DNA of 64,000 nucleotides from a virus. The stretch lies in the IMG/VR virus record IMGVR_UViG_3300008262_006988; one strand, written 5' to 3'. Positions 41,898 to 42,631 of this stretch are shown here, piece by piece. A model generated the notes under the pieces. The model saw nothing but the letters and a program-made list of their open reading frames with translations, was not told where the DNA came from and searched no databases. Numbering within the stretch: position 1 is the stretch's first letter; the number at the start of each line of letters is the position of its first letter. A program made the position numbers and the translations under genes.

Positions 41898-42580
41898 ATT
41901 ACAAGAAACGGTGAATTTGTATCAAAACCACCGACTTCCGTCACACCTTCCGGAGTTAGAAGATAGAGTGTACCCTCAGTGAGAGGTTGCATTCCTTTAG
42001 TCTCAACGGATGAGAAGTCGTTTGTTAGAAAATTACTATAAAGTGTACTACCGCATCGCGCTATATACGTATTGCATGACAGCTTATTATGTATCCAGAG
42101 ACCGTATGTACCTTCTATATAAGATAATGTCTCTATTATTGACTCAATCTCGTCGTACCCTTCATCACTAAGAGTATACAAAAGAGCAGGTATAAGAGAT
42201 GTATCTACAACGTTGTACAAAGTGTCGTCGTTTATTCGCTTTTTTATTTTATCGCAGTTCGTTAATACACCATTATGCGCTACTAACCACTCGTTGCAGC
42301 AGAAAGGATGAGTAGTGTCAGCATTATATTCTCGCTGACAGCTTGTAGGTGCCTGTGTATGCCCGAGATATAAATTAAAATCTTTAACCTGTATCTCATG
42401 ACTTTCACTAACTAATAGATCTGTCTTTTCGAGATTTATTGTGCCTTCTGTTTTAATAGTTACAACAAGATTTTTATTCCGAACAAAAAGACCTCCATAT
42501 GAGAAATCACCTCTAGTTCTTCCTTTTTCGTATAATTTTTTATATGTTGTAAATTTTGTTGAGCCAAATATCGAGCAAAT
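41894..42580 (-). CDS. Stand-alone class II (Ntn) glutamine amidotransferase, probable ATT start
   Basis: CSIFG, RG, LGHTQAPT, HPF, AHNGVL and VDT motifs. The catalytic Cys codon directly follows ATT at 42580, with GGGAGG 10 nt upstream. Confidence 0.85.
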   Translation of the reverse strand: MCSIFGSTKFTTYKKLYEKGRTRGDFSYGGLFVRNKNLVVTIKTEGTINLEKTDLLVSESHEIQVKDFNLYLGHTQAPTSCQREYNADTTHPFCCNEWLVAHNGVLTNCDKIKKRINDDTLYNVVDTSLIPALLYTLSDEGYDEIESIIETLSYIEGTYGLWIHNKLSCNTYIARCGSTLYSNFLTNDFSSVETKGMQPLTEGTLYLLTPEGVTEVGGFDTNSPFLVI

Positions 42581-42590
42581 AAGTTTCGTG

Positions 42591-42631
42591 CCTCCCTGTA
42601 ATAAATATATACGAGAGAATAAATATTTCAA
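42591..42631 (-). promoter_or_regulatory. sigma70 promoter plus Shine-Dalgarno for the amidotransferase
   Basis: TTGAAA (42626-42631)-16-TATATT (42604-42609); GGGAGG at 42591-42596. Confidence 0.65.

Follow-up and report, generated by a model that had tools for sequence, protein, structure and literature searches.

The ATT start codon and strong Shine-Dalgarno (SD) sequence of gat, a phage gene for a stand-alone class II (Ntn) glutamine amidotransferase, are probably the footprint that a homing-endonuclease cassette of the free-standing GIY-YIG type has left, and not, as the original prediction had it, a dedicated switch governed by initiation factor IF3. The DNA analyzed here (64,000 nucleotides; hereafter the window) belongs to a T4-like freshwater phage whose record is a 98-kb fragment, 39% complete; a string comparison of the window with G000:C1:28379-92378 of that record did not find the two identical, and the gat protein matched at 100%.

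On the minus strand of the window, a -35-like box TTGAAA (42626..42631), which is read directly and occupies the same place in homologues, is followed after 16 nt by a -10-like box TATATT (42604..42609), after 7 nt by the strong SD GGGAGG (42591..42596), and after a further 10 nt by the ATT initiation codon (42578..42580), which has T at position -1 and adjoins the catalytic Cys codon TGC (42575-42577); the layout first described for this site is thus exactly what the strand reads. All promoter and +1 positions are predictions, the +1 falling at or just before the SD. Taken alone the promoter-like site does not exceed chance (17 sites in 4 kb versus 11.9 +/- 3.2 in shuffled sequence); most homologues, however, have it in the corresponding position. 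The TTG at which the open reading frame had been called is the first codon of the -35 box and opens a 17-codon extension, and we agree with the earlier view that this call is wrong. The plus strand carries the late-promoter-like motif AATAAATA twice, at 42618..42625, 9 nt before a divergent gene, and at 42600..42607, abutting the SD.

The case for ATT as the real start comes from 140 distinct homologues compared at the DNA level, in which the codon before the catalytic Cys is ATT in 62, ATG in 78, and never anything else. This set joins 106 distinct homologues (62 ATT, 44 ATG) to 34 more distant ones, all ATG; homologues number roughly 350 in IMG/VR and 390 in metagenomes, loci were picked by similarity rank, 80 per scan, and many of the records are fragments. 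The conserved ATT and SD that the original prediction proposed to look for in homologous phage genes are indeed there, GGAGG preceding 61 of the 62 ATT genes (8-10 nt away) versus 1 of the 78 ATG genes. The -10 box lies 18-23 nt from the start in ATT alleles and 5-12 nt before 36 of the 41 ATG starts that have a detectable box; most ATG alleles of gat are, to judge from their sequence, leaderless. Elsewhere in the ATT genes isoleucine is encoded by a mixture of codons (ATT 453, ATA 343, ATC 88), yet the start position is ATT in 62 of 62, which argues that an initiation codon is under selection here and not an isoleucine of a propeptide. Base -1 is T in every ATT allele versus 17 of the 78 ATG alleles. 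ATT and ATG alleles did not differ in the folding energy of the start region (-16 to +33), and an out-of-frame XTG overlapping the start was discarded as an ATT-specific feature after it proved to open 5-19 codons in both allele classes.

These comparisons leave very little room for the view that translation begins at the upstream TTG and yields a self-cleaved propeptide, as in Bacillus subtilis PurF, or that the ATT is a sequencing error or private mutation. The 17-codon extension from TTG is open in the window, and gene callers have made similar extensions in four database proteins. However, three relatives with 87% protein identity keep GGGAGG and ATT-TGC with a spacer of 9 nt instead of 10, so that the extension is out of frame there; 54 of the 62 ATT genes have no in-frame ATG, GTG, or TTG upstream, and a stop often lies 1-6 codons away; the TTG sits in the -35 box; and the wider family begins Met-Cys. 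Conservation of ATT and the SD in other phages makes sequencing error untenable, and the homologue comparison likewise led us to reject a private mutation, the TTG start, and a propeptide. On this comparative evidence translation of gat starts at an ATT that follows a strong SD, and the product would begin with fMet-Cys and, once Met is removed, with Cys1, as had been proposed. Of the 120 best database homologues (P0002-P0121), about 48 are missing the catalytic N-terminus and another 4 have an artificial extension. Many of the truncated entries are probably mis-called ATT genes and some may be contig fragments; gene callers probably skip ATT and thereby drop the catalytic N-terminus from many homologues.

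An SD of this strength is exceptional in the genome in which it stands. No strong SD (-8.4 kcal/mol) precedes any of the 107 canonically called starts of the 98-kb record, and the ATT of gat is the sole GGAGG-led start found there, so the description of its SD as the only strong one holds. Strong SDs are few in four relatives as well (1-6 per record of 176-245 genes), and no other convincing SD-led non-AUG gene was found in the five records. A promoter box stands 4-9 nt before 43 of 111 starts versus 9.6 in shuffles; leaderless transcripts are thus probably common, in line with the earlier characterization of this phage as largely leaderless. No relatives of gat were found in a first metagenome scan with a single protein, in a scan of prokaryote genomes, or in a search of cultured phages, so that the gat family is uncultured. 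Other translation-related genes were seen in passing. Homologues of bS21 occur in relatives (L007:8105-8317, L201-L203, and L352:13882-14082), often just downstream of the helicase, and none was found in the window's own genome fragment; the bS21 phages described in PMC9723584 differ in gene context from gat-family phages. Neither bS21 nor a MoaD-like gene gave a clear indication of the host. One relative has a phage tmRNA with an unusually long tag ORF (L169:14109-14520), and another has a tRNA array (L185:211-3147) that includes Asp, His, Asn, and two CAT tRNAs.

The gat gene (41894..42580, minus strand; 228 codons) encodes a GATase_6 protein, matching the GlmS glutaminase profile (E 2e-11), in which Cys1 would become N-terminal on removal of Met. 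Its structural model (pLDDT 94.5) matches 1xff in Foldseek (E 3.7e-12, TM 0.75), a GlmS/PurF-type Ntn fold, and its best viral structural match is the Gat-QueC of Vid5. In the alignment C1 is nearly invariant and R82, H101-N102-G103, and D125 are invariant, the wider family being about 205-240 aa long; the expectation that such an enzyme must begin Met-Cys is borne out by a start codon directly before the Cys in 140 of 140 homologues. By its modeled fold and conserved residues, Gat is a stand-alone class II glutaminase. Downstream lies a gene for a GT2-family glycosyltransferase (41211..41897, minus strand) whose closest structure is majastridin. It had been described as coupled to gat; the ATGA overlap of the two genes is present in the window and in 108 of the 140 alleles, and translational coupling is what such an overlap would suggest.

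A divergent 315-aa gene of unknown function (42635..43582, plus strand) separates gat in the window's clade from queC (44069..44779, minus strand), its likely synthetase partner, which lies directly upstream of gat in distant relatives with the order uvsX-queC-gat-GT2-helicase. With folE (GTP cyclohydrolase I; 58336..58989, minus strand), a queD-like gene with a PTPS domain (60244..61008, plus strand), and a queE-like radical SAM gene (62240..62998, plus strand), the window contains the 7-deazaguanine pathway genes for FolE, QueD, QueE, and QueC, and Gat probably feeds glutamine-derived ammonia to QueC for 7-deazaguanine DNA modification. Gat and QueC are encoded by separate genes in the window and the relatives examined rather than fused, and their predicted complex scored 0.36 versus 0.40 for the control, which speaks neither for nor against an interaction. 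The window's own record also contains a bimodular QueF outside the window (G000:C1:771-1673). Homologues of DpdA3 were found in four relatives (L195:9280-10098 and G001-G003; E between 6e-10 and 4e-4, calculated on a small local set); none was found in the own 39%-complete record, which ends about 0.8 kb before queF, and searches for TGT, DpdA (NF041059), and the DpdA2 of nt-1 gave no match, only DpdA3 matching. Because QueF, DpdA3 homologues, and a core GT2 occur together, the pathway may end in a preQ1 derivative and not in dG+, which suggests an undescribed, possibly glycosylated preQ1 DNA modification in gat-family phages. Gene content around gat varies among relatives: heme oxygenase and ferredoxin-dependent bilin reductase genes lie between queC and gat in one (L354:8741-10001), and in L369-L373 an acetyltransferase, a dGTP diphosphohydrolase-like domain (PF18909), and DUF5856 lie between gat and GT2 in varying combination. 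In this group gat is broken in L371 and intact in L370, and L373 has a second GIY-YIG gene beside queC.

The origin of the SD and ATT is suggested by an opposite-strand ORF of 238-244 aa that seven ATT alleles from separate branches of the tree carry head-to-head with gat. It matches PF01541 (E 0.007) and NUMOD1 (E 0.016), both under the curated cut-off, and many of its homologues carry PF01541 or PF19835. All six of the more distant homologues that we looked up are likewise head-to-head at a gat start, so that this is the endonuclease's position in 13 of 13 contexts examined, and the five distant loci with DNA all have an SD and ATT before the Cys, their Gat proteins being 26-64% identical to one another. 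All 12 endonuclease-bearing alleles that could be read thus have SD plus ATT and none of the 78 ATG alleles has the endonuclease, an association that is partly ascertained and not phylogenetically independent, since the search that led to the five distant alleles started from the endonuclease. Against their empty ATG sisters (91%, 97%, and 96% identical), three invaded alleles show where the cassette ends: its left junction is at the -10 box of gat and its right junction exactly at the ATT, the -10 box and ATG of the recipient being replaced, whereas from the Cys codon on its own sequence continues. In a comparison of three of the endonucleases identity was 63-70%, against 49-54% for the Gat proteins next to them, a difference that fits a mobile element.

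Intermediates in the loss of the endonuclease are also present. L050 keeps its codons 1-24, and L127 has the cassette leader only, rejoined to the -35 box of the host; 53 of the 62 ATT alleles have neither the endonuclease nor a clear remnant, and 55 are without an intact endonuclease. Upstream of the window's gat the family HMM found no endonuclease, and the only candidate remnant is promoter sequence: in the window's clade the second AATAAATA (42600..42607) lies against the SD, where cassette-bearing alleles have the endonuclease's own late promoter. This short, AT-rich motif is a candidate scar and weak evidence of a remnant. Mapped on the protein tree, the start codon switches between ATT and ATG 11 times; strong branches force 7-9 of these changes, and six are still needed when the cassette alleles are left out. 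Five ATG alleles (L012, L015, L024, L149, and L151) have the -10 box 21-25 nt away and an SD that is decayed or mis-spaced, as reversion of a scar would predict; these candidate revertants include L024, the closest ATG sister of the invaded L018. L025 and L096, which have no endonuclease, share a near-identical promoter with L117 and have an SD+ATT block 11 nt longer, which could be a clean scar or could have come from conversion limited to the start region. The cassette leader of nine alleles (L018, L021, L030, L034, L035, L050, L094, L127, and L167) has an 11-codon uORF that lies about 40 nt upstream of gat, overlaps the SD, and stops 4 nt before the ATT; the arrangement resembles the thrS-infC junction and might permit re-initiation. 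A SegE-like GIY-YIG gene elsewhere in the window (55786-56235) is only faintly similar to the gat-targeting family.

One can therefore envision a homing cycle in which the endonuclease would target the conserved promoter-ATG-Cys-x-Ile-Phe-Gly stretch at the start of gat; homing endonucleases are known to target conserved functional codons (PMC2988022). The cassette would insert opposite to gat and bring its own SD and ATT, an insertion that can be seen in the relatives. By turning ATG into ATT the cassette most likely does away with a G on which cleavage depends, leaving the invaded allele immune and Cys1 intact, much as I-BmoI binds its invaded allele and cannot cut it because the critical G-C pair is lost (PMC3664794). 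Since Cys1 cannot be changed, immunity would have to come from the start codon, which would also account for the absence of GTG and TTG, both of which retain the G, at all 140 gat starts. Leaderless initiation is poor from non-AUG codons in E. coli (PMC9031893), so that a strong SD, often with U at -1, would be needed. The endonuclease would later decay by deletion, of which the relatives show intermediates, to the compact promoter-SD-ATT leader of the window, which reads as a scar that one further deletion from an L127-like state would yield. The ATT might then be kept because it stays immune to circulating endonuclease, because an ATG behind a strong SD would over-express gat-GT2, or for both reasons. 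Immunity alone is insufficient, since ATA and ATC are absent from a clade of 42 members (58-71% protein identity) and something must also select the T; ATA may be excluded by the out-of-frame ATG that it would form with the Cys codon, and ATC is unaccounted for. That the 53 bare ATT alleles descend from the cassette is suggested by their shared geometry and the short AT-rich motif.

We consider it unlikely that selection instead favored SD and AUU as a means of translating gat-GT2 at times of low IF3 relative to 30S subunits, IF2, and fMet-tRNA, a state that would also benefit the leaderless mRNAs of the phage, although much of the geometry invites this interpretation: GGAGG stands 8-10 nt before AUU as in infC, AUU is the most IF3-sensitive triplet in vitro, above AUA (PMC5499595), leaderless translation is inhibited by IF3 (PMC9031893), and ATT is strictly kept in the 55 alleles without an intact endonuclease. 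The premise that AUU and leaderless mRNAs are both inhibited by IF3 in E. coli is therefore supported, and gat is probably IF3-sensitive mechanistically, likely as a side effect. Of 7 independent pairs, moreover, 5-6 show SD and ATT changing in step and none shows them changing in opposite directions (p about 0.03), but the cassette predicts this equally, and the four pairs that remain without cassette alleles are not significant. Further, 78 alleles use ATG, five of them with a long leader and an SD remnant; the leaderless ATG is the family default rather than specific to gat; and no other pathway gene has SD plus ATT, queC, folE, and queE starting with ATG without an SD. While gat shares a conserved AUU and a strong SD with infC, its product is a glutaminase and its neighbor a GT2, and neither is or controls IF3, so that no feedback loop is evident; GT2 might conceivably act on translation indirectly. 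No IF3 homologue (IF3_C) was found in the five partial records. The further claim of a selected switch tied to translational takeover thus finds no support, given the 78 ATG alleles and the arrival of SD and ATT with the cassette; as the end of a mobile cassette, the architecture is explained without a sensing role. There is an outside chance that a scar was later kept as a sensor of initiation-factor balance, gating full-substitution 7-deazaguanine DNA modification when IF3 is limiting, in which case a selfish element would have created an infC-like control element.

It is similarly doubtful that the weak start arose as a dose limiter, as in pcnB, selected once gat had split from queC and gained its own promoter so as to hold down both the coupled GT2 and a glutaminase that, uncoupled, would waste glutamine. 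AUU limits pcnB expression, according to work cited in PMC5499595; gat is apart from queC in all ATT alleles of the 140 set with enough flank, the contiguous queC-gat alleles being ATG; and the long-leader ATG alleles have weaker or mis-spaced SDs. Many separated alleles nevertheless use a leaderless ATG, and GTG, TTG, or a weaker promoter would suffice, although the first two are absent from all starts. An SD-less genome that acquires a strong SD is also taking an indirect path to lower expression, and the association with the endonuclease is left unexplained. Dose limitation is more plausible for the keeping of ATT than for its origin.

Descent from a homing cassette offers a testable origin for conserved non-AUG starts in phages, namely a selfish nuclease acting on the Met-Cys of an Ntn enzyme. 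The start codon is all that such a nuclease can alter if Cys1 is to survive, and the alteration turns a leaderless gene into an SD-led one. All stages from empty and invaded through partly deleted and scarred to apparently reverted alleles occur in one family, which opens a homing cycle with an immune end point to direct study. These findings also suggest that caution is necessary when reading regulation into a start codon, as a conserved AUU need not mean control by IF3. Neither an endonuclease that replaces a start codon with ATT nor the gat family was found described in our search of the literature, which reached a minority of subscription journals.

In infC of E. coli, a strong SD stands about 8 nt upstream of the AUU. 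Like gat, infC and pcnB start at AUU, and infC is under IF3 repression (PMC5499595); infC, however, encodes the very factor that reads its codon, closing a feedback loop, whereas gat encodes a glutaminase, and in contrast to both E. coli genes the ATT of gat alternates with a leaderless ATG and travels with a mobile endonuclease. An ATT-TGT start is annotated for another class II amidotransferase, gene 83 of phiEco32 (phi32_83, YP_001671828; NC_010324), but there it begins a 676-aa protein in an amidoligase cluster of an unrelated podovirus, whereas gat encodes a 227-aa stand-alone domain near queC, with a GIY-YIG gene opposite, in an SD-less, leaderless genome of a T4-like freshwater phage. 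The same class II glutaminase fold occurs in the Gat-QueC proteins of phages 9g and Vid5, from which the gat product differs in not being fused and the gat family in also having QueF, DpdA3 homologues, and a core GT2. In Vibrio phage nt-1, the unannotated ORF392 (L351:7714-8322) encodes a weakly similar stand-alone Gat directly after queC, an adjacency that it shares with distant gat relatives. The cassette itself resembles I-BmoI, I-TevI, and the seg genes of T4 in its GIY-YIG plus NUMOD-type architecture, its sporadic occurrence among sister alleles, its conserved-codon target, and an invaded allele altered at the insertion site (PMC3664794, PMC2988022). It has no intron, however, and adjoins its presumed target, while seg genes sit hundreds of bases away; and the bases that it changes are the start codon and leader of its host gene, which goes from a leaderless AUG to an SD-led AUU.
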